From the IMG/VR virus record IMGVR_UViG_2711768060_000010: a stretch of DNA of 32,340 nucleotides. One strand, 5' to 3'. A program made the position numbers and the translations under genes. The notes beneath the pieces are model-generated. The model had not been told where the DNA came from, made no database searches, and saw nothing but the letters and a program-made list of their open reading frames with translations. Positions 3,738 through 31,406 of the stretch are shown here, piece after piece; position 1 is the first letter of the stretch, and each line of letters begins with the position of its first letter. The stretch comes from a virus (lineage: Duplodnaviria > Heunggongvirae > Uroviricota > Caudoviricetes).

Positions 3738-3971
3738 ATGCATACGACACGTAATGAAATGACTGCGATTCGAACCGGTGACGAGCTGCTGGGCATGCTG
3801 GCGAAAGCCACGGCGGAAGGTAAGGCGGCAGCTGCCGATCTGTGCTCTGCGCGTCTGGAAAAGCTGGCCTCTCATGCGGCAAGCGAAGGGTTAAGCGCTG
3901 CGGAAATTGTGGAACTGGTACGAGAAGAAGCTATGGCTATTTGTAGCAAAGGCGGTGCGGCATGGAACTGA
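3738..3971 (+). CDS. Hypothetical early protein
   Basis: 77-aa ORF with AAGGA RBS upstream of ATG. Confidence 0.45.
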   Translation: MHTTRNEMTAIRTGDELLGMLAKATAEGKAAAADLCSARLEKLASHAASEGLSAAEIVELVREEAMAICSKGGAAWN

Positions 3972-5091: not shown

Positions 5092-7109
5092 ATCCTGCCG
5101 CTAATGGCCAACATCACGCCGTCGATACCTGGCGGCGTGAGACGTTCGCGCCGGGTACGCCAGCTGATGCAACGATTACAGAGCGCCGCCTGTGGGCAGT
5201 TAACCCGCAGGATTACGAATGGCGCTCACAGTACCTTCATGAAATACCCGACTGGTTAGCCGGGTATTTTGGCAACCGCTACGAAAAACTTCTGGCTGGT
5301 CGTGATGGCCGTCGCCGTGCCAATACATTCCTGCGCAAAACCATCGGCGGGAATGTATTGCCACGTCTGCGGAAAGTGGCCGCGCGTTATGCGCTGGCTG
5401 AAGATGTCAGCGATCTCACCTTCGGAAAGGCTCTGCAGCGCCTGCCGTCGCTTGACCGCACCGATCTGAAAAAGCTATCTGGCCAGGTATCCAGTTGGAT
5501 GGCGCAAATGTTCTATGAGTTCACTGGCCAGCTGAAAGGAGCGCCGAAGGACGCGCGTGATATGCACCGGCGCACGCTGGACGCTTATCGTAACCTGTGC
5601 GCACTTTCGCTGATGCTGAACAATCAACCCCCGTACTGGGCTGAGCACGAAGCCAACGATGGGGTTCTGGAAACCCGCAAGGCTGAATCCGGCATTTTGC
5701 GCATGAAGGCGCCGGAATGGTGGTATCAGCGCCTGAAGCGTGCGCGTGATCTGCAGCGTGAACATCTGGCCATTGCCGTGGGGCAGGTACAGAAAGCGGC
5801 CAGCGCCTATGTATCACGCAAAACCCTGGGCGAATGGGTAGAGCAGAAAAAACGTAATCTGGAGTTCTTCAAAAAATTCGACCTGATGGACGAAGAAGGG
5901 AACCGCATTGCGCTGGATAGCATGGTGCATCGCAGCGTGGCTAACCCTGCGATCCGCCGATGTGAACTGATGGTGCGCATGCGTGGTTTTGAGGACATAG
6001 CCAATGAGCAGGGGCTTGCCGGTGAGTTCTACACTATAACCGCGCCTTCTCGCTTCCACGCGGTGCACAGTAAAGGCGGGTTTGTCTCTCAGTGGAACGG
6101 CTCCAGCCCGCAGGATACGCAGCGCTATCTGTGTAAGGTCTGGGCGAAGTGCCGCGCCGCCATTTCCCGTGCGGGTATCCACGTATTCGGCTTTCGCGTT
6201 GTAGAACCGCATCACGATGGCACGCCCCACTGGCATATGCTGCTGTTTATGCACCCCCAGGACGTGGACGCCGTGCGCGATATCCTTTGCTATCACGCCC
6301 GCATTGCAGATTCCGAAGAACTGCAGACACCCCACGCGCTTAAGGCGCGTTTTCACGTTGAGCCTATCGATCCCGAAAAAGGGTCGGCTACCGGCTATAT
6401 CGCTAAATACATCTCCAAAAACATCGACGGCTATGCGCTCGATGGTGAAGCCGATGAGGAAACCGGCGAAAACCTGCGTGATATGGCTAAGTCGGTGACG
6501 GCCTGGGCATCACGCTGGCGTATCCGGCAGTTCCAGCAGATTGGCGGGGCGCCTGTCACCGTGTGGCGTGAATTACGTCGCCTGGGCGATCAGCGCCTGA
6601 CTGATGCCCGGATGGATGCCGTGCTCGCTGCTGCTGATGTTGGCGACTGGGCAGCTTATACCCAGTTGCAGGGCGGGGCGCTGGTTGCCCGCCGCGATCT
6701 GATTGTTCGCCTGGCTTACGAAATTACAGAGCAGGGCAACGAGTATGCCGAAGATGTGCAGCGCGTTCAGGGCATCTATTCACCTCACATTCCAGATTCT
6801 GAAGTTTGCACGCGTCTGGTGAAGTGGCAGAAGGTTGCGAAGTTGGCCGAAGCGCCAGCGGAGGCTGGTTTTTCTGGCGGCAACGCCGCCCCTTGGAGTT
6901 CTGTCAATAACTGTACGGAGGGAGGAACCCGGAGACGGTTAAAACTGGAACTGAACCAGCGAGGGTTTGCCGGAACGGATGAAGAAATCGACATTCTGAA
7001 GCGGGGTGGCGGTCTCAAATTTGGCCGATCTGCCCTGATTTACAGGGAAGGGAGGTTGCAGGAGAAACGGAACAATCCGGAAGATGAGCAATGGCCAGGC
7101 TGGCAGTAA
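5082..7109 (+). CDS. Replication initiation endonuclease gpA (rolling-circle HUH protein, P2 A / 186 A-like)
   Basis: 675-aa ORF; HUH motif TPHWHMLLF and active-site Tyr motif GYIAKYISKNIDGY visible; size and position as in P2/186. Confidence 0.85.
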   Translation: MRMNPAANGQHHAVDTWRRETFAPGTPADATITERRLWAVNPQDYEWRSQYLHEIPDWLAGYFGNRYEKLLAGRDGRRRANTFLRKTIGGNVLPRLRKVAARYALAEDVSDLTFGKALQRLPSLDRTDLKKLSGQVSSWMAQMFYEFTGQLKGAPKDARDMHRRTLDAYRNLCALSLMLNNQPPYWAEHEANDGVLETRKAESGILRMKAPEWWYQRLKRARDLQREHLAIAVGQVQKAASAYVSRKTLGEWVEQKKRNLEFFKKFDLMDEEGNRIALDSMVHRSVANPAIRRCELMVRMRGFEDIANEQGLAGEFYTITAPSRFHAVHSKGGFVSQWNGSSPQDTQRYLCKVWAKCRAAISRAGIHVFGFRVVEPHHDGTPHWHMLLFMHPQDVDAVRDILCYHARIADSEELQTPHALKARFHVEPIDPEKGSATGYIAKYISKNIDGYALDGEADEETGENLRDMAKSVTAWASRWRIRQFQQIGGAPVTVWRELRRLGDQRLTDARMDAVLAAADVGDWAAYTQLQGGALVARRDLIVRLAYEITEQGNEYAEDVQRVQGIYSPHIPDSEVCTRLVKWQKVAKLAEAPAEAGFSGGNAAPWSSVNNCTEGGTRRRLKLELNQRGFAGTDEEIDILKRGGGLKFGRSALIYREGRLQEKRNNPEDEQWPGWQ

Positions 7110-7191
7110 TAGCCTGTAAGTGTGTGATATGTAAAACGTAAATTGTTACTGGTGTGAATAAAAAAATTCACAATTAATGCTTTTGAGTGTA

Positions 7192-7207
7192 CTGTATGTT
7201 TATACAG
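7192..7207 (+). promoter_or_regulatory. LexA box (SOS operator) over the -10 of a rightward promoter
   Basis: taCTGTatgtttatACAGtt: exact CTGT-N8-ACAG core with AT-rich spacer; upstream TTCACA (7167-7172) as -35, 17-nt spacer, TACTGT as -10 overlapping the box; 22 nt upstream of the RBS of the following ORF. Confidence 0.7.
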
Positions 7208-7228
7208 TTGTTTGCGTGGGAGGATACT

Positions 7229-7441
7229 GTGCAGGATTTATTTTTTGAAACCGTTGCCTTTCAACGGATCGCTTTAGTTGCAAAACTTATGGCAACCGCT
7301 GACTGTTCTGAAGATGAAAAGGATGTGGCGCTGGCCTGGCTTGGAGAGATGACGCAGGAACTGGGAAGGAAGCTGGATCAGTATGAAAAAAAACACCCCC
7401 ATAATGGGGGCGATTCAGGCGGCAGGGGCGGCTTTCAGTAA
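7229..7441 (+). CDS. LexA-regulated small protein; candidate Tum-like antirepressor/SOS-induction factor
   Basis: GTG start 7229 preceded by GGGAGG (7218-7223); about 70 aa; position after gene A and LexA control parallel phage 186 tum, but the product is shorter than 186 Tum and its identity is inferred from context only. Confidence 0.4.
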   Translation: MQDLFFETVAFQRIALVAKLMATADCSEDEKDVALAWLGEMTQELGRKLDQYEKKHPHNGGDSGGRGGFQ

Positions 7442-7738
7442 ATCCAGAGCCATTTGCTTCTGATTGGGTGACAGATTTTTTAATAAGGTTTGTACCAGAG
7501 CGTCACCCGTTTTAGCGCTGGGGCTGAGAGTGTGGGAAAACGTCAAATTCATAACAAAAGTGTGCCCACACTCCACATCTGCGCATGCGCAGTAAATATC
7601 TGCAATCTGGCGGTGCTTTCGGTTAGTTTTGCGAATCACAGCCTTAGATCCGCACTCCGGACATTCAATTTTCAGGACTCTCATATTCCATTCTCCGGCT
7701 GTCAAATAATGCCTGGATTTTAGCCTTTTTTGACTCAT
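7415..7738 (-). CDS. Ogr/Delta-family zinc-finger transcriptional activator (late gene activator candidate)
   Basis: Cys pattern CPEC...RKTNR...YCACADVECGHTF parallels Ogr/B (CPxC...RTSR...QCxNxxCxxTF); the ATG at 7738 overlaps the portal stop (ATGA), alternative internal start at 7684 has a GGAG RBS. Confidence 0.65.
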   Translation of the reverse strand: MSQKRLKSRHYLTAGEWNMRVLKIECPECGSKAVIRKTNRKHRQIADIYCACADVECGHTFVMNLTFSHTLSPSAKTGDALVQTLLKNLSPNQKQMALDLLKAAPAA

Positions 7739-8787
7739 GCTGCACCCTTCACCGTTGTTTCTTCAGTAAAATTCAAATGCAGGTGGCGCGGAATTTCCGG
7801 ATCGCTGTTGATGGCCATCGCCAGGCGGCGCTGAATGGGCAGCACTTCATTCTTTTTGTAGGTGCGCTCAATCTTTTCCGGGTCGCCCAGCCCGGCAGTA
7901 TTCTGCGGAACAATACCTGCAAGCCCGGCCGGAAAGCGGTGCGCGTTCAGAATGTCCTGGGCGCTGATGTTCTTCACGCTCGCAAATTCATCCTTGGCCG
8001 AAATGTCCCCCATCTCAATAAACTTGATCGCGTCACCGTCGCCGCCAGGGATGTTCACCAGGATGGTGGAGAAGTTGCCGATCCCCTTGCTGTCCCGCAG
8101 CTGCCGTTCAATCTCCTCCTCCATTTCGTCCGTCATGCTGGGGTCACGGGTATACAGAATGCCGCCCGTGTGTGCGCCGTTGTGGTAGTAGCGACGGCGA
8201 AAAATAACTGCCTCACTGTTCAGCAGGGCAGAGTGAACGCCGCCGATGTAGTCCGGCAGACCATAGATGTGCTGCTGCGGGTCGTACATCTTGATGAAAA
8301 TGATATCGTCAGGCGGGAACGCCAGCGGCTCGCCTTCCTGTAAAACCACGTAATCCCCTGGCACAGTCTCCGCGTTTTCTCTCTCCTTTCGTCGGCGGAG
8401 GTAAAGCCCCGGCAGCGGCTGAAGCCCGATCACGTCTCCCCAGCCATTACGGATTTTGGCCACAGCGATATCACCAAAGGTCAGGTAATCAAAAACAGCG
8501 GCCTCCAGCTCGTCGAACGTCAGGCCGCCGCCCTGATAGTCCGCCGTCACCATGTTTTTACGGGCGTGGATAATCCCGCCGTGCTGGCCGTTCAGGTTGA
8601 TAAGCTGCGCCAGCGCCAGACGGTCAATCGGCTGGGTGTAGTGGTCGGCGGCGTTGTCGTACCAGATTTCCCGGTAATCGGTTCCGGTAGTCAGTACCGG
8701 TTCTGGTTTGCCAAAGCTGATAATGCTCATTTTTTTGGACTTATCGCCGCGCTGTTCGCGCTTCACAAAACGTTTCTTTTTGCTCAT
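7735..8787 (-). CDS. Portal protein (P2 gpQ-like)
   Basis: 350-aa ORF directly downstream of the terminase large subunit on the same strand; size matches P2 Q (about 344 aa). Confidence 0.85.
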   Translation of the reverse strand: MSKKKRFVKREQRGDKSKKMSIISFGKPEPVLTTGTDYREIWYDNAADHYTQPIDRLALAQLINLNGQHGGIIHARKNMVTADYQGGGLTFDELEAAVFDYLTFGDIAVAKIRNGWGDVIGLQPLPGLYLRRRKERENAETVPGDYVVLQEGEPLAFPPDDIIFIKMYDPQQHIYGLPDYIGGVHSALLNSEAVIFRRRYYHNGAHTGGILYTRDPSMTDEMEEEIERQLRDSKGIGNFSTILVNIPGGDGDAIKFIEMGDISAKDEFASVKNISAQDILNAHRFPAGLAGIVPQNTAGLGDPEKIERTYKKNEVLPIQRRLAMAINSDPEIPRHLHLNFTEETTVKGAA

Positions 8788-10556
8788 GCTGCTTGTTTCC
8801 TTACACCCCAGCGGGATTTTGGTTTGTTTTCATAGTTGAGTGGTTCGTTATGCAGGGCGTGGGTGATTGCCCAGAATGCCTCTGCGTGGCCAGTGTCCTG
8901 GCTGCGGTCTGCAACAAAGGTCATTGCGTTACCGCTCTGCGTGGTAGTGCGCCGCACTGACATAAAGCTGGCGGGGATTTCCTTCAGGTTTTTGTCCCAC
9001 TCGATACGCTGGCTTTCCACCACATCGGCGGCCTTCAGTACCAGCTGGTTTTTGGTGTTCATGTCGTAGCGAATCGGGACAACAACCTTCATGGCAAAGT
9101 GCTGGATATTGTCAAACACCCCCTGGCCGATCCCGGTTACGTCCACGCCCAGATAAGTGAAGTTGTACTGGTCAAACAGCTTTTCGATCTGCTTTGCCTG
9201 GTGACGGAAGTTCATGCCCTTCCAGTAAATCACCTTCAGCACGCGGAATTTTTCCACGGCAAACATCGGCGGGGCGACAATCACAAAACACGACAAATCG
9301 CCGCTGCGTGCCGGGTCAAAGCCGCCCCATACTGGCCTGTCACCAAACGGCCGTTTTGCATCCGGGTCGTGATCCTGCCAGGTGTCCACCTCCACGCCGC
9401 ACGCTTCCAGGTCGGAAAAGCTGAAAACGGAATCCTTGCTGTCCACGAACACGCACATGTAAAGCATGTCGAATGTGGCGGTGTTGTAGCGGTTGCGCAG
9501 CTTCTCGATGTTGGCCAGATTGAAGCCACCCGCAATGGCATCTTCCATGGTGATGACATAGCGCCACTGGCCATCCGGGCAGAGCCGTCCACCGTTCCGC
9601 ATTTCATCGAACAGTGGAAACGTAATGGCCGCACGTTTCTTGCTGCCCTGTTTCCACTCTTCACCCGTCCAGAACGGATACGCCTGGTGCGTTTTGGCCG
9701 ATGGCGTGGAAAAGTAGGTGGTACGCCATTTGTCATGTGTGGCCATCGCGCTGGCCACTTCATTGAGTTTTGCAAAGTTGGGCACCCAAAAATATTCATC
9801 ACAGTAAAGATGGCCACTGTATGACTGGGCGGTGTTTTTGTTGGTAGACAGGAACCGCAGCTCTGCGCCGTTGCTTAAGCGGATCGGGTTCCCCGTCAGC
9901 GTGATGCCAAAATACTGTTCTGCAATGTTGACGATGTAAGACCGGAACACCTCCGCCTGTGCTTTGGATGCGGACAGGAAGATTTGCGGATCGCCCGTCA
10001 TTACCGCATTTTCGAACGCTTCAAACGCAAAGTACCAGGTTGCACCGATCTGGCGACTTTTCAGGATGTTCCTGACCAGCTGGCCTATGTTGCGGCGCAG
10101 GTGTTTCTGATATTCGAAAAGATGCTCCTCTGCCCAGGTGTCAAAATCCTCCTGGGTCAGAGACGAGATATCGTTTTTCTTGTACTTGCGTTTGCTGCGC
10201 GGCTCGTCGTCGTCCCCTCGCGCAGCTGCTTGCCGTTCCCCCTGGCTGGAGGCCAGCTTTTCTTTATGTTTATTGCTCTGGGCACGCAGCTTTGTGGCGT
10301 GAGCAATAAGCAAATCCATTTCTTTTAAATCCAGATCCGTTTTATTGTCGCGCCCGGCTAACAGCTGGTAACGGCGTTCAATTGCCTCCTCTGTGCTTTC
10401 GAAACTGAGCAGGTCAGCCCATTTATATTTTTCTGCCCAGTAGTAAACGATCCGCGCATTCGGCAGATTTAATTCTGATGCAATTTCTTTGGGCGTGTAA
10501 CGGCGCAAGTAGAGTGCGCGGACAACGCCTTTTAATTCGTCTGAGTATTTAGCCAT
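8784..10556 (-). CDS. Terminase large subunit, ATPase (P2 gpP-like)
   Basis: 590-aa ORF (P2 P is 590 aa); divergent from the O-N-M-L operon as in P2/186. Confidence 0.9.
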   Translation of the reverse strand: MAKYSDELKGVVRALYLRRYTPKEIASELNLPNARIVYYWAEKYKWADLLSFESTEEAIERRYQLLAGRDNKTDLDLKEMDLLIAHATKLRAQSNKHKEKLASSQGERQAAARGDDDEPRSKRKYKKNDISSLTQEDFDTWAEEHLFEYQKHLRRNIGQLVRNILKSRQIGATWYFAFEAFENAVMTGDPQIFLSASKAQAEVFRSYIVNIAEQYFGITLTGNPIRLSNGAELRFLSTNKNTAQSYSGHLYCDEYFWVPNFAKLNEVASAMATHDKWRTTYFSTPSAKTHQAYPFWTGEEWKQGSKKRAAITFPLFDEMRNGGRLCPDGQWRYVITMEDAIAGGFNLANIEKLRNRYNTATFDMLYMCVFVDSKDSVFSFSDLEACGVEVDTWQDHDPDAKRPFGDRPVWGGFDPARSGDLSCFVIVAPPMFAVEKFRVLKVIYWKGMNFRHQAKQIEKLFDQYNFTYLGVDVTGIGQGVFDNIQHFAMKVVVPIRYDMNTKNQLVLKAADVVESQRIEWDKNLKEIPASFMSVRRTTTQSGNAMTFVADRSQDTGHAEAFWAITHALHNEPLNYENKPKSRWGVRKQAA

Positions 10557-10728
10557 AGATTTAATTATGCCGTGGTGCTGATGAAAAAACGGCGGGGTTA
10601 ATTCGGGGCTGTTCGGTAATGGCTTATAACCGAACTGTTCAGAATAAAGCGTAATGCGGGGATGTGTTTAATTAGCAATAATCAAATCCACAGCAAGGGA
10701 AACAGTTAATCGACAGAGGGGGAAATAT

Positions 10729-11523
10729 GTGTCGCATTTAAAAACTGGCTGGCTGTGTGTTGCTACTGAAGGCGATACGGTTGATGGGCGAGTGCTGGAA
10801 CGGCAATGGATTATCGATATGGGGGAAACCTATGACCCTGACCATTACGCCGCTTTACTCTGGCCAGAACACGAGCGCTACGCCGGAAACTTTGGTGAAG
10901 TGCTGGAAGCGATGTGGCAGGACGGCGATGACGGGCTGGCGCGGCTGTATGTCAGCCTGTGCCCGAATAAGCGCCTGATTTATGCAAACGACGAAGGCCA
11001 GCTGCTGTATTTCTCCGTAGAGCCGGAGCTGAACTGGCGCGGAGGGGATCGTACATATCTGAAGGGGCTGGCTGTCACTGACAACCCGGCAAGTGTAGGA
11101 ACTACACGTCTGCGCTTTAGTCAGCGCAAATTAAACAAACAGGGATATTACAGTTGTGTGATTTCCCGTAACGGTAAAATTACGCAGGAAGGGAAGATGA
11201 AGAACTGGCAGAAGTTGTTTGGTATTAAGCCGAAATTTGAAGATGAAAATTCGCAGGACGATCCACCTGCTGATGATAAATTGCAGGCGCTGGCGAGTGC
11301 CCTGAACGATCTGGAAGCGCGGGTGGGCAAAATTGAAACCCAGCTTAATTCCGTGCAGGACGATGTTGACACTATTACCGAAGTAGTGGACACGGAAGAG
11401 TTTGCCGTTATTCGTGATAATGCAAAAGAGATTGTTACCCGCTTTAATGATTTGGGTAATAAGGGCGGTCAGCGCAAACAGCGTCAGGTGCAGTCCAAAT
11501 CCGGTAAATTTAGCTACCTGTAA
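10729..11523 (+). CDS. Capsid scaffolding protein (P2 gpO-like)
   Basis: GTG start with AGAGGGGG RBS; motifs ATEGDTVDGRVL and LKGLAVTDNPAS match P2 O (GVEGDTCDGRVI, LVGLAVTDDPAS) from memory. Confidence 0.8.
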   Translation: MSHLKTGWLCVATEGDTVDGRVLERQWIIDMGETYDPDHYAALLWPEHERYAGNFGEVLEAMWQDGDDGLARLYVSLCPNKRLIYANDEGQLLYFSVEPELNWRGGDRTYLKGLAVTDNPASVGTTRLRFSQRKLNKQGYYSCVISRNGKITQEGKMKNWQKLFGIKPKFEDENSQDDPPADDKLQALASALNDLEARVGKIETQLNSVQDDVDTITEVVDTEEFAVIRDNAKEIVTRFNDLGNKGGQRKQRQVQSKSGKFSYL

Positions 11524-28346: not shown

Positions 28347-29465
28347 ATGACTGAAAAATTCACCGCAATTTTGTTAGACACAAGTATCTACGATCAGTAC
28401 GGATTAAAGCTTGAGAAAGGACTACTGGGTAAGCTTTCCCAGTTCAGCCGAACCCCGACAACGTTTTTGATACCGGATGTAATTTACAACGAAGTCAAAA
28501 ATCATCTTGAAAGAAAAATCAGGACTTCACGTGGCTCTCTTGAGAAAGCTTTCGAAGAGGCTGGCGATCATCTTTTTTTTGATGGAAGCGAACTAAATGA
28601 CGCAAAAAGAACATTGATTGAAGGCAGAGAAGTTGAAGGATTAGGAAAGAGTAGATTAGACAGATTTGTTGGCGTAACAGATGCGGAGGTTTTGACTACT
28701 GGGGATTACGTTTCGGTACCTGAACTACTTGAACGATATTTCTCTTCTGAAGCTCCTTTCGCAGATACAGGGAAGAAAAAAAATGAGTTTCCTGATGCGA
28801 TCACATTAATGGCCGTCCAAGCTTGGGCTGAAGAGAATGGTGAAAATGTTCTTGCCGTAGCAAGAGATGACGATTGGCAGAGATTTTGTGCTGATGCTGA
28901 GAATTTGCATTATGAACCTGACTTATCAAAGGCTTTAGCACACTTCAATGAAGAAACCGCACCTTATGAACTAATTGATAACTTACAAAAAGCACTTGCT
29001 GAAGGACAGGCCGGTAAATTCTTGCATGATGTTGCTGTACACCTTGAGTCAACCTTTGACGGTTTTGCACCAGAACAAGAGGCAGATTCATATTTGTACT
29101 GGGAGGCTGATGGATGCTCAGGTGGATTTGAAGATTTTGAGTTTACAGATAATTACTTCACTGTCATTGACAAGGATGAAAACTGGGTTGTTTTAGAAGC
29201 ATTTGCAGAAATTTCACTTTACGCAGATGGTGATTTCTCCCTATCAGTTTACGATTCATTCGATAAGGATCATGTCTACATGGGGTCAATCACCAAGCGT
29301 GCCGAGGAAACATATACATCCAGAATACTAATAACAATCTCCGGAGACTTGTCAGGTTCTATAGATGATTTGACCGTTGAAGATGTGGAAGTAATAGAGC
29401 GTCCGACGTCGATGGATTTTGGGGAGCTGGAATTAGCATATGAACCTGACGAGCAAGATTTGTAA
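28347..29465 (+). CDS. PIN-like nuclease domain protein with acidic C-terminal domain of unknown function (accessory/cargo gene; candidate single-gene defence or toxin)
   Basis: 372-aa ORF with AAGG RBS; PIN-fold hallmarks in order: hydrophobic strand then Asp (AILLDTSIY), FLIPDVIYNEV, and NEFPDAITLMAVQAWAEENGENVLAVARDDDWQRF; about 35-40 percent GC by eye against about 55-60 percent in the prophage; isolated behind a terminator and a roughly 630-bp leader. Confidence 0.6.
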   Translation: MTEKFTAILLDTSIYDQYGLKLEKGLLGKLSQFSRTPTTFLIPDVIYNEVKNHLERKIRTSRGSLEKAFEEAGDHLFFDGSELNDAKRTLIEGREVEGLGKSRLDRFVGVTDAEVLTTGDYVSVPELLERYFSSEAPFADTGKKKNEFPDAITLMAVQAWAEENGENVLAVARDDDWQRFCADAENLHYEPDLSKALAHFNEETAPYELIDNLQKALAEGQAGKFLHDVAVHLESTFDGFAPEQEADSYLYWEADGCSGGFEDFEFTDNYFTVIDKDENWVVLEAFAEISLYADGDFSLSVYDSFDKDHVYMGSITKRAEETYTSRILITISGDLSGSIDDLTVEDVEVIERPTSMDFGELELAYEPDEQDL

Positions 29466-29565
29466 CAAATATGATTGGGCACTATCGCTGTCGCCATTTT
29501 GTCGCCAACTCAATCACCGTTTTATTGCAAGTATTTGAATTTAATGATTTTTATTTTCAGGCAAC

Positions 29566-29608
29566 AAAAAACCCATCAACCTTGAACCGAAATGGCGGGG
29601 TTGATGGG
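29566..29608 (-). terminator. Terminator-like hairpin (minus-strand orientation)
   Basis: CCCATCAACC / GGTTGATGGG 10-bp perfect stem with a 17-nt loop; the A6 run on the plus strand becomes a T-run after the stem on the minus strand; about 110 bp downstream of the ybjL stop. Confidence 0.45.
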
Positions 29609-29720
29609 CTCCACAAAATGGGGACATCAAAGAAAAGCAGTGGCACTAATTAAGACTGATGCCCTGCGGAAAAGTTCTGCGGTTGTGCAAAAAAATTTCA
29701 TTTTCAGGGCAACTTCAGTT

Positions 29721-31406
29721 TTATCCTAATCCTGGCCATACCATGACGATGATTGTCCCTGCCAGCGTCAGCAGGACGTTGGCGATTGCGTAGGTGCCCG
29801 CGTAGCCCAGCGCAGGGATGTTACTGCGAGCTGTATCACTGATGATCTCCATTGCCGGCGCGCAGGTGCGTGCGCCCATCATTGCGCCGAACAACAGTGC
29901 GCGGTTCATTCGCAATACATAAGCACCGAACAAGAAACAGATAACCACGGGCACAAGACTGACAATTAATCCGGCAATCAACATCTGACCGCCAATCGCG
30001 CCCAGGCCGTTATTAATACCGCTACCGGCGCTCAGACCAACGCCTGCCATAAACACCATCAAGCCGAACTCTTTCACCATGCTTAATGCACCTTGCGGAA
30101 TGTAACCGAAGGTCGGGTGGTTAGCACGCATAAAGCCCAGCATAATTCCGGCGAATAACAACCCGGCAGCGTTCCCCATGCCGAAACTGAATGTGCTGAA
30201 CTGGAAGGTGATCATCCCGATCATCAGCCCAATAACAAAGAAGGCGCAAAATGCCAGCAGGTCAGTGACCTGGCTGTGAATCGAGATAAAGCCGATGCGA
30301 TCGGCGATGGTTTTTACGCGACGGGCATCACCGCTGACTTGTAAAACGTCACCTTTGTTAAGCACGACGTTGTCATCTATCGGCATCTCAATCTGGCTAC
30401 GAATGACGCGGTTAAGGAAGCAACCGTGATCGGTCAACTTCAGTTGTGCGAGACGTTTACCTACAGCGTTATGGTTTTTAACGACCACTTCTTCAGTGAC
30501 GATACGCATGTCGAGAAGGTCACGATCGAAAACTTCTTTACCGTTACGGAAGCTGGGATCGAGTCGGGCATGGGCGTCGGGATAGCCTACCAACGCTATT
30601 TCATCGCCCATTTGTAGCACGGCATCACCGTCTGGATTTGCCAGAATCCCGTTACGTCGAATACGTTCAATGTAGCAGCCGGTTTGTCGATAAATACCCA
30701 GTTCACGCAGATTTTTGCCGTCGGTCCAGGCCACCAGCTCCGGGCCGACGCGATAGGCGCGGATCACCGGTAAATAAACCTTACGGTTGGCATCAGTGTC
30801 CAGGCCACGTTCGCGGGCGATTTGCTGGGCGCTGGTCTGTAAGTCCTGATGCTGCAATTTCGGCAAGTAACGCGCACCAACAATCAAACTCACCAGACCG
30901 ATTAAATAGGTTAAGGCATACCCGAGGCTCAGATTATCCAGTGCCAGTGAGAGCTGCCTGCTTTCCATGCCGGAATGACGCAGTGTATCGCCAGCACCGA
31001 CCAGAACCGGTGTCGACGTCATAGAGCCTGCTAACATACCGGCCGTCAGGCCAATATCCCAGCCAAACAGCTTACCTAACCCTAAGGCGATCACCAGCGC
31101 ACTGCCAACCATCACCAGTGCTAACATTAGGTAATTTTTCCCATCGCGAAAAAAAATGGAAAAAAAGTTCGGTCCGGCTTCGACCCCGACGCAGAAAATA
31201 AACAGCATAAAGCCAAGATTAAGCGCATCGGTGTTAATGCTGAAATGTTGTTGGCCTAATAACAGCGATACGACTAAAACGCCAATGGAATTACCCAGTT
31301 GGATCGAACCAAGTCGTAACTTTCCGAGACATAGCCCAAGCGCGAGGACCACAAATAATAACAGAATGTAATTCCCATTTAACAATTCGGCGACGTTTAT
31401 ATTCAC
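29721..31406 (-). CDS. ybjL: Putative AAE-family transporter YbjL (two membrane domains flanking cytoplasmic RCK-C/TrkA-C domains)
   Basis: 561-aa ORF recognised as E. coli YbjL from its translation ([20 protein letters not shown]...); chromosomal, not phage. Confidence 0.9.

Follow-up and report, generated by a model that had tools for sequence, protein, structure and literature searches.

Proteins of the Ogr/Delta family are characterised as binding one zinc ion and as the phage factor both required and sufficient for late transcription, on which they act via the RNA polymerase alpha subunit. A gene of this type lies directly behind the portal gene of an Escherichia coli prophage and overlaps, tail to tail, a small gene preceded by an SOS box, which raises the question of how its expression is tied to the late genes and to the neighbour on the opposite strand. 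The first-pass annotation regarded the gene as relocated, translationally coupled to the portal gene, part of a feed-forward loop and open to antisense interference with the SOS-induced transcript. These points were followed up in the whole stretch of 32,340 nucleotides that was analysed (the window) and in related phages and prophages.

Prophage context and family of the zinc-finger gene

The region is 100% identical to the chromosome of E. coli LR-51 (NZ_AP027550.1), and 30 of 5426 complete E. coli genomes match it. The limits of the prophage are the integrase gene at window position 1 and a PIN-domain gene at 28347-29465, past which the host genes rybB and ybjL occupy 29563-31406. The prophage is about 29.6 kb long, and the window holds all of it except attL. 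It is a prophage of the ESSI-2/K139 type (Peduoviridae), integrated beside rybB in E. coli LR-51. Its genes include those for a 186-type CI (ORF 1131-1751, profile match to Phage_CI_repr and Phage_CI_C), a CP76-type CII, a Dam methylase and a gpA replication protein, and its late-gene layout is the same as in ESSI-2 and K139.

The sRNA gene rybB (29563-29641, minus strand, Rfam 105 bits) is the immediate right-hand neighbour of the prophage and has its 3' end facing the phage, and rcdA lies on the far side of int; therefore, the rybB region appears to be the attachment site. Besides the SOS box discussed below, a second good one (TACTGTTTATTTATACAGTG, 1090-1109) lies in the minus-strand gap from the cI stop (1131) to the int start (1053), which suggests that transcription into int may be under LexA control. 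The spacer between cI and cox (1764-1820) contains four copies of GGAAAGT/ACTTTCC arranged as two inverted pairs, which are likely candidates for CI operators. CI control of the zinc-finger gene, as at the CI-repressed pB promoter of 186, was considered and rejected, because these operator-like repeats are located at cI/cox and none is present near 7400-7800.

The zinc-finger ORF is located at 7415-7738 on the minus strand and encodes 107 aa in its long form. Residues 25-71 match positions 1-47 of the 47-position Pfam profile PF04606 (Ogr_Delta) with 70 bits (E = 1.6e-19), the curated cut-off of this family being 26.3 bits, and the ORF also matches PHROG 603, "transcriptional regulator" (E = 1e-44). 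The C4 zinc-finger core (7568-7663, minus strand), found by the Pfam match and by a six-frame motif scan, reads CPEC-X20-CAC-X4-C, that is C26-X2-C29-X22-C52-X4-C57. The Ogr cysteine motif has been given as CX2CX22CX4C (PMC3931495), and all four cysteines are invariant in an alignment of the protein with K139 Orf13 and P2 Ogr. Family, coordinates and cysteine spacing were thereby confirmed as first annotated, and the gene is already named in RefSeq as "ogr/Delta-like zinc finger family protein" (WP_044158755.1). Matches to the Lar family stayed below threshold in both Pfam (21.6 vs 28.6 bits) and NCBIfam (18.2 vs 39.6), and the remaining zinc-ribbon matches were all under their cut-offs. No NCBIfam model exceeded its cut-off for this protein or for its Tum-like neighbour, and no solved structure of any relative of the activator was found in PDB. 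In the literature searched, no experiments on any member of its clade were found.

The Ogr-spaced cysteine motif occurs once in a six-frame scan of the whole window, within this ORF. Three further matches to the looser pattern CxxC-X16-28-C-X2-5-C were rejected, as they lie in non-coding frames and are without the Ogr spacing, and the same scan found no second Ogr-type motif in the whole prophage. The first-pass annotation had made its reading depend on there being no canonical ogr/B gene elsewhere; the complete prophage was scanned, and none is present. Likewise, no other candidate late activator is listed in the complete genome of the relative ev040. The single Ogr-type copy thus stands in a P2-like genome with the head genes P, Q, O, N, M and L, and the ORF at 7415-7738 is predicted to encode an Ogr/Delta-type zinc-finger late-gene activator (the activator).

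Late operon, late control region and gene position

The leftward late operon begins with the gene of the terminase large subunit (P homologue; 8784-10556, minus strand), assigned from its ORF and RefSeq annotation. The portal gene (Q homologue; 7735-8787, minus strand; Pfam Phage_portal; NCBIfam TIGR01540, 212 bits) is directly upstream of the activator gene, and head-to-tail overlaps of 4 bp join terminase to portal and portal to activator. At the second junction the plus strand reads tcat at 7735-7738, and the activator ATG (7738-7736) overlaps the portal TGA (7737-7735), which bears out the ATGA noted in the first pass. An intrinsic terminator (7384-7412, minus strand), consisting of a stem-loop at 7412-7394 (CGCCCCCAUUAUGGGGGUG) followed by U8, begins 2 nt past the ogr stop, within the Tum-like coding region, and most enteric loci carry a CCCCC-loop-GGGGG hairpin and a T-run straight after the ogr stop. 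A scan of the minus strand over 10556-7412 detected no other strong terminator-like site and one weak site at chance level. Consensus promoter scans called no promoter at 6900-8900 or 8700-10900, and no Rfam family was found in 6900-8000 at E <= 1.

Given the overlapping P, Q and activator genes and the single terminator after the activator, every transcript started at the P promoter extends through the activator gene, and this would provide positive feedback. The link had been described as a feed-forward loop; it is positive feedback, and its principle is not new. According to the record of 186, tB serves for "termination of transcription from pB and late promoter", so that 186 B is also read from a late operon. 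The activator gene is most likely the last cistron of the late P-Q operon, and its product the sole late activator.

The spacer between the divergent P and O genes (10557-10728) contains no P2-type TGT-N12-ACA site. Such sites are found six times in the window (6.3 expected), all within genes or outside the prophage. A scan of the spacer also found no sigma-70-consensus promoter, as expected for activator-dependent promoters. Instead, a dyad, TTCGG-N13-CCGAA (10612-10634), is present within a 23-nt imperfect inverted repeat; it occurs as one exact copy in the window (0.28 expected) and, in an alignment with a mean identity of 48%, it is kept by all seven phages, which include K139 and represent seven genera. 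The dyad is found once per genome; the other late genes and the activator gene have no further copy in front of them. From its position and conservation, the dyad is a candidate target of the activator. The arrangement fits one bidirectional late control region, from which P-Q-activator would be transcribed leftward and the long O-first operon rightward.

Further features of this spacer concern the transcript starts. The terminase ATG at 10556 (window 10554-10569) is not preceded by a Shine-Dalgarno sequence, and CATAAT is found at a fixed 7-8 nt before the P ATG in six of the seven aligned phages, with GCGTAT in K139. If CATAAT is the -10 element, the late P-Q-activator mRNA would be leaderless, and the dyad centre at 10623 would be about 66 bp from the leftward start, with a similar distance to the rightward start predicted from AATAAT (10677-10682).

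In the window, the terminase, portal and zinc-finger genes follow one another on one strand and converge with the early operon; this order is common to Vibrio phage K139, Cronobacter phage ESSI-2, Escherichia phages ev040 and ev239, Yersinia phage vB_YenM_324 and Salmonella phages SW3 and SI7. It was also found in phages of Aeromonas (phiO18P), Pasteurella (F108), Pseudomonas (BIBS67) and Haemophilus (HP1, where the ORF is split and unannotated). The synteny is kept in at least 10 genera, including five enteric Peduoviridae genera; Burkholderia phage phiE202 is an exception, with its Ogr-like gene located elsewhere. For K139, statements on orf13 are drawn from its GenBank annotation, where the product is a zinc-finger protein, and from a previous study, which assigned the ogr homologue a place flanked by the portal and replication genes and already speculated on a different timing of late expression (PMC8537503). 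According to this synteny survey and the same study, the post-portal site is standard in the HP1/K139/ESSI-2 branch, and "relocated", as the gene was first described, applies only relative to 186, where gene B directly follows D and adjoins attP/int.

In the HP1c1 record (U24159, locus L012), the Ogr-like gene downstream of portal (orf15) is found at 2427-2719, unannotated and in two frames, with CTVC in one and CAC-X4-C in the other. The match in HP2 is continuous, and the split in HP1c1 thus points to a frameshift or sequencing error.

K139 Orf13, with 59% identity to the activator, is the closest known case, and the homologues of ESSI-2 and ev040 show 87-89% identity. Family and synteny are shared between the window and K139, F108, phiO18P, ESSI-2, vB_YenM_324 and SW3/SI7. 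Within this group, K139-type phages have a spacer (and orf14) that parts the gene from portal and contains a CTGT-N8-ACAG palindrome, whereas the enteric clade has a 50-nt spacer without the palindrome, open in frame from the start codon at the portal stop. P2 Ogr and 186 B belong to the same Pfam family and share the CX2CX22CX4C motif and small size, but are only about 26% identical to the activator, whose C-terminal tail is longer and which can carry 18 additional aa at the N-terminus. 186 B follows the same logic, as a gene that closes a late operon, has a promoter of its own and shares the operon's terminator; however, it lies behind D beside attP/int, while the activator gene lies behind Q in the P-Q operon. 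The P2/186 branch has TGT-N12-ACA sites, unlike the late spacer of the window. P4 Delta is a satellite-borne covalent tandem of two Ogr-like domains, which carries the Ogr_Delta zinc-finger domain and activates helper late promoters. In contrast, the activator has a single domain (one Pfam stretch) and is encoded by a complete helper-type prophage.

The CTGT-N8-ACAG palindrome (e.g. AACTGTACAAAAACACAGCT) is located 75-90 nt upstream of the Ogr-like CxxC, at 3938-3957 in K139 (L002), where the box upstream of orf13 reads CTGTACAAAAACACAG. The same palindrome is present in loci L013, L014, L074, L081, L082, L084, L085, L089, L092 and L093; its range covers phages and prophages of Vibrio, Photobacterium, Aeromonas (phiO18P) and Pasteurella (F108), and it is absent from the enteric clade and the window. 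It looks like an SOS-like box directly before the late activator gene.

Start codons and the 54-nt extension

Two start codons are in use among the records of this gene. Besides the 107-aa form, an inner ATG (M19, 7684-7682) defines a short form of 89 aa (7415-7684, minus strand), which in an alignment with Vibrio homologues begins where K139 and the others have their N-terminus (MRV.CPEC), and the RefSeq phage records of ev040, ev239 and SI7 annotate this start. A Shine-Dalgarno-like GGAG (7693-7696, minus strand) lies 8 nt before the inner ATG and recurs as an SD-like motif in 25 of 34 distinct sequences. The N-terminal extension also contains, 32 nt before the inner ATG, a -10-like TAAAAT (7717-7722, minus strand), which is a candidate for the gene's own promoter.

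For comparison, 80 related loci were fetched from bacterial genomes. Each of the 34 distinct enteric sequences has a start codon placed at the portal stop or beside it and sharing the reading frame of the zinc finger; its form is ATGA (28), TAATG/TGATG (five) or TTGA (one). It is kept even where identity in the 54-nt stretch falls to 28%, and in ESSI-2 the ATG is shifted by one codon and re-created in frame as TGATG. This conservation supports real translational coupling.

The TAAAAT block is conserved to at least 97% at each of its six positions (38 distinct sequences) and is found at the same offset in 36 loci. The codon preceding it is always NTA (GTA 12, CTA 11, TTA 7, ATA 3), encoding V, L or I; the Lys codon within it is AAA in 32/34; and the codon following always starts with T, while its residue varies among S, F and Y. 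At TAAAAT it is thus the DNA that is under constraint, not the protein. Codon periodicity amounts to 0.88/0.96/0.60 in the core, where it is clear, and to 0.73/0.76/0.64 in the extension, where it is weak. Counting of stop codons as proof of a coding extension was dropped as weak, as a stop is present in only 8 of 34 sequences in the single alternative frame that is informative, the second frame always including the stop of portal. No recognisable -35 accompanies TAAAAT and the consensus scan made no call there; thus, an embedded promoter would be weak or factor-dependent.

Taken as they stand, these signals suggest two expression routes, in which the embedded promoter and its Shine-Dalgarno sequence would yield 89 aa and coupling to portal would yield 107 aa. 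The translational coupling proposed in the first pass is accordingly supported by the in-frame start in 34/34 sequences, but is probably not the sole route, given TAAAAT, the SD-like motif and the inner ATG in the extension.

The Tum-like neighbour and the alternative readings

The convergent ORF (7229-7441, plus strand) encodes 70 aa from a GTG start, and its final 27 nt run antisense to the 3' end of ogr. With ends at 7441 for this ORF and at 7415 for the zinc-finger ORF, the 27-bp overlap was correctly described. The start had been listed as GTG 7187, which is inside the SOS box; the RefSeq start is GTG 7229, 6 nt after GGAGG. The SOS (LexA) box (TACTGTATGTTTATACAGTT, 7190-7209, plus strand) is located 80 nt past the gene A stop; by manual count, 17 of its 20 positions agree with the textbook LexA consensus for E. 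coli. Of 90 loci, 37 (K139 among them) have an equivalent box at a distance of 190-280 nt past the ogr stop, and the pair of an SOS box and a small convergent ORF recurs in K139, ESSI-2, ev040, vB_YenM_324 and many genomic loci.

The protein matches PHROG 698 and no Pfam or NCBIfam model. In BLASTP it aligns with 186 Tum over residues 7-43 only (30% identity, pairwise E = 6e-7), where the similarity stops, and it has no DinI-like C-terminal half. As for 186 tum (p95/tum), an SOS box lies upstream, the gene is just past the replication gene, a short N-terminal stretch aligns and the partner is a repressor of the 186 CI type, which is not self-cleaving, and on these likenesses the label "Tum-like" given in the first pass is fair. 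In contrast, 186 Tum has 146 aa and its own terminator, whereas the window ORF is shorter and ends inside the activator gene.

Two further elements were observed near this gene. A perfect AT-rich inverted repeat, TGTGAAT-N6-ATTCACA (7153-7172), unique in the window, is located just upstream of the SOS box, and a hairpin with a T-rich run (7211-7235, plus strand) overlaps the SD and GTG start of the ORF; the latter could mask the ribosome-binding site, attenuate transcription or be due to chance.

In most Enterobacteriaceae the overlap with the activator gene measures 27 nt, in Xenorhabdus and Serratia 24-30 nt; it is absent, with gaps of 1-22 nt, in several Erwinia, Pectobacterium and Xenorhabdus loci, and in K139 the same gene pair abuts with zero overlap. 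The overlapping Tum-like tail is Gly-rich and variable, with Tum homology ending near residue 45, and the Tum-like stop is the antisense of TTA, which encodes a Leu of the activator's conserved LDLL. A scan found no good plus-strand terminator past the Tum-like stop, the hairpin having its T-run on the minus strand only; read-through antisense to ogr is thus physically possible, and antisense interference with the Tum-like transcript may be possible as well.

We propose, with a probability of roughly 0.8, that the zinc-finger protein is the sole late activator of an ESSI-2/K139-type prophage and is encoded by the last cistron of a terminase P-portal Q-activator operon. An initial dose of the 89-aa form would come from a weak or factor-dependent promoter with its -10 TAAAAT just past the portal stop, translated from GGAG and the inner ATG. 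The protein would then activate the divergent P and O promoters, probably via the TTCGG-N13-CCGAA dyad. Later transcripts from the P promoter would bring the activator cistron with them, and ribosomes ending portal would restart at the overlapping ATG, which would establish positive feedback and produce a form that is longer by 18 residues at its N-terminus. The tail-to-tail overlap with the SOS-controlled Tum-like antirepressor gene would follow from tight packing of the region.

Several other readings were weighed against this one. A zinc-ribbon regulator with another role, such as a repressor, an anti-restriction (Lar-like) protein or a packaging accessory co-expressed with head genes, would agree with the missing TGT-N12-ACA sites, the weak sub-threshold Lar matches in Pfam and NCBIfam and the operon shared with portal and terminase. 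However, the Ogr_Delta match is full-length and well over its cut-off while the other zinc-ribbon matches are sub-threshold, the prophage would be left without a late activator although its P/O spacer has no consensus promoters, and K139-type homologues have been termed ogr homologues (PMC8537503), so such a role is very improbable. It is far easier to imagine, though still on the unlikely side, that only the 89-aa, K139-like protein is produced, with transcription from its own promoter and translation from the inner ATG, and that the ATGA and the 18 open codons are by-products of a compact spacer with no functional coupling. TAAAAT, GGAG and the inner ATG are conserved, and these nucleotide signals explain most conserved positions of the extension, where codon periodicity is weak; moreover, homologues of Vibrio, Aeromonas, Pasteurella and Pseudomonas begin at MRV, 45-120 nt from portal, and the short form is annotated in three RefSeq phage records. 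Against it stand the in-frame start at or next to the portal stop in 34/34 enteric sequences with identity down to 28%, the junction geometry, which varies among ATGA, TAATG, TGATG and TTGA while the frame is always kept, and the constant enteric spacer length of 50 nt.

The overlap itself might be a regulatory device, in which SOS-driven Tum-like transcription would pass antisense across the activator gene, late transcription would enter the Tum-like gene, and the two would damp each other via collision or RNA pairing. Its retention (24-30 nt) in many enteric loci and the read-through made possible by a minus-strand-only T-run and the lack of a good plus-strand terminator speak for it, but the K139 pair abuts without overlap, several Erwinia, Pectobacterium and Xenorhabdus loci have gaps of 1-22 nt, and the variable Gly-rich tail with a stop opposite the LDLL TTA fits passive compaction. 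In addition, Rho could end untranslated read-through and no Rfam family matches there, which makes a regulatory overlap doubtful. Equally speculative, and of similarly low probability, is an extended form of the two-route scheme, in which the spacer, which in K139-type phages would carry a promoter and an SOS-like box, became coding in the enteric ESSI-2-like clade yet kept its promoter, the 89-aa form would be made early and the 107-aa form late, the basic 18-residue extension would alter the long form (e.g. capping or retuning late transcription), and convergent SOS-driven transcription of the Tum-like gene would act as a timing brake.

With the activator read as the sole late activator and last cistron of the P-Q operon, the arrangement is a published one, and the discovery value is small: the gene is already correctly named in RefSeq and its position is typical of the phage lineage. 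The analysis adds two modest, testable points, a possible two-isoform design and a candidate operator, TTCGG-N13-CCGAA; a DNA site for this Ogr branch was not found described in the literature searched. For annotation, it is useful that start codons differ between records (107 vs 89 aa) and that the HP1 copy is unannotated. For the family, the same logic, a late activator riding a late operon, would have been built on two different operons in two P2-like branches.
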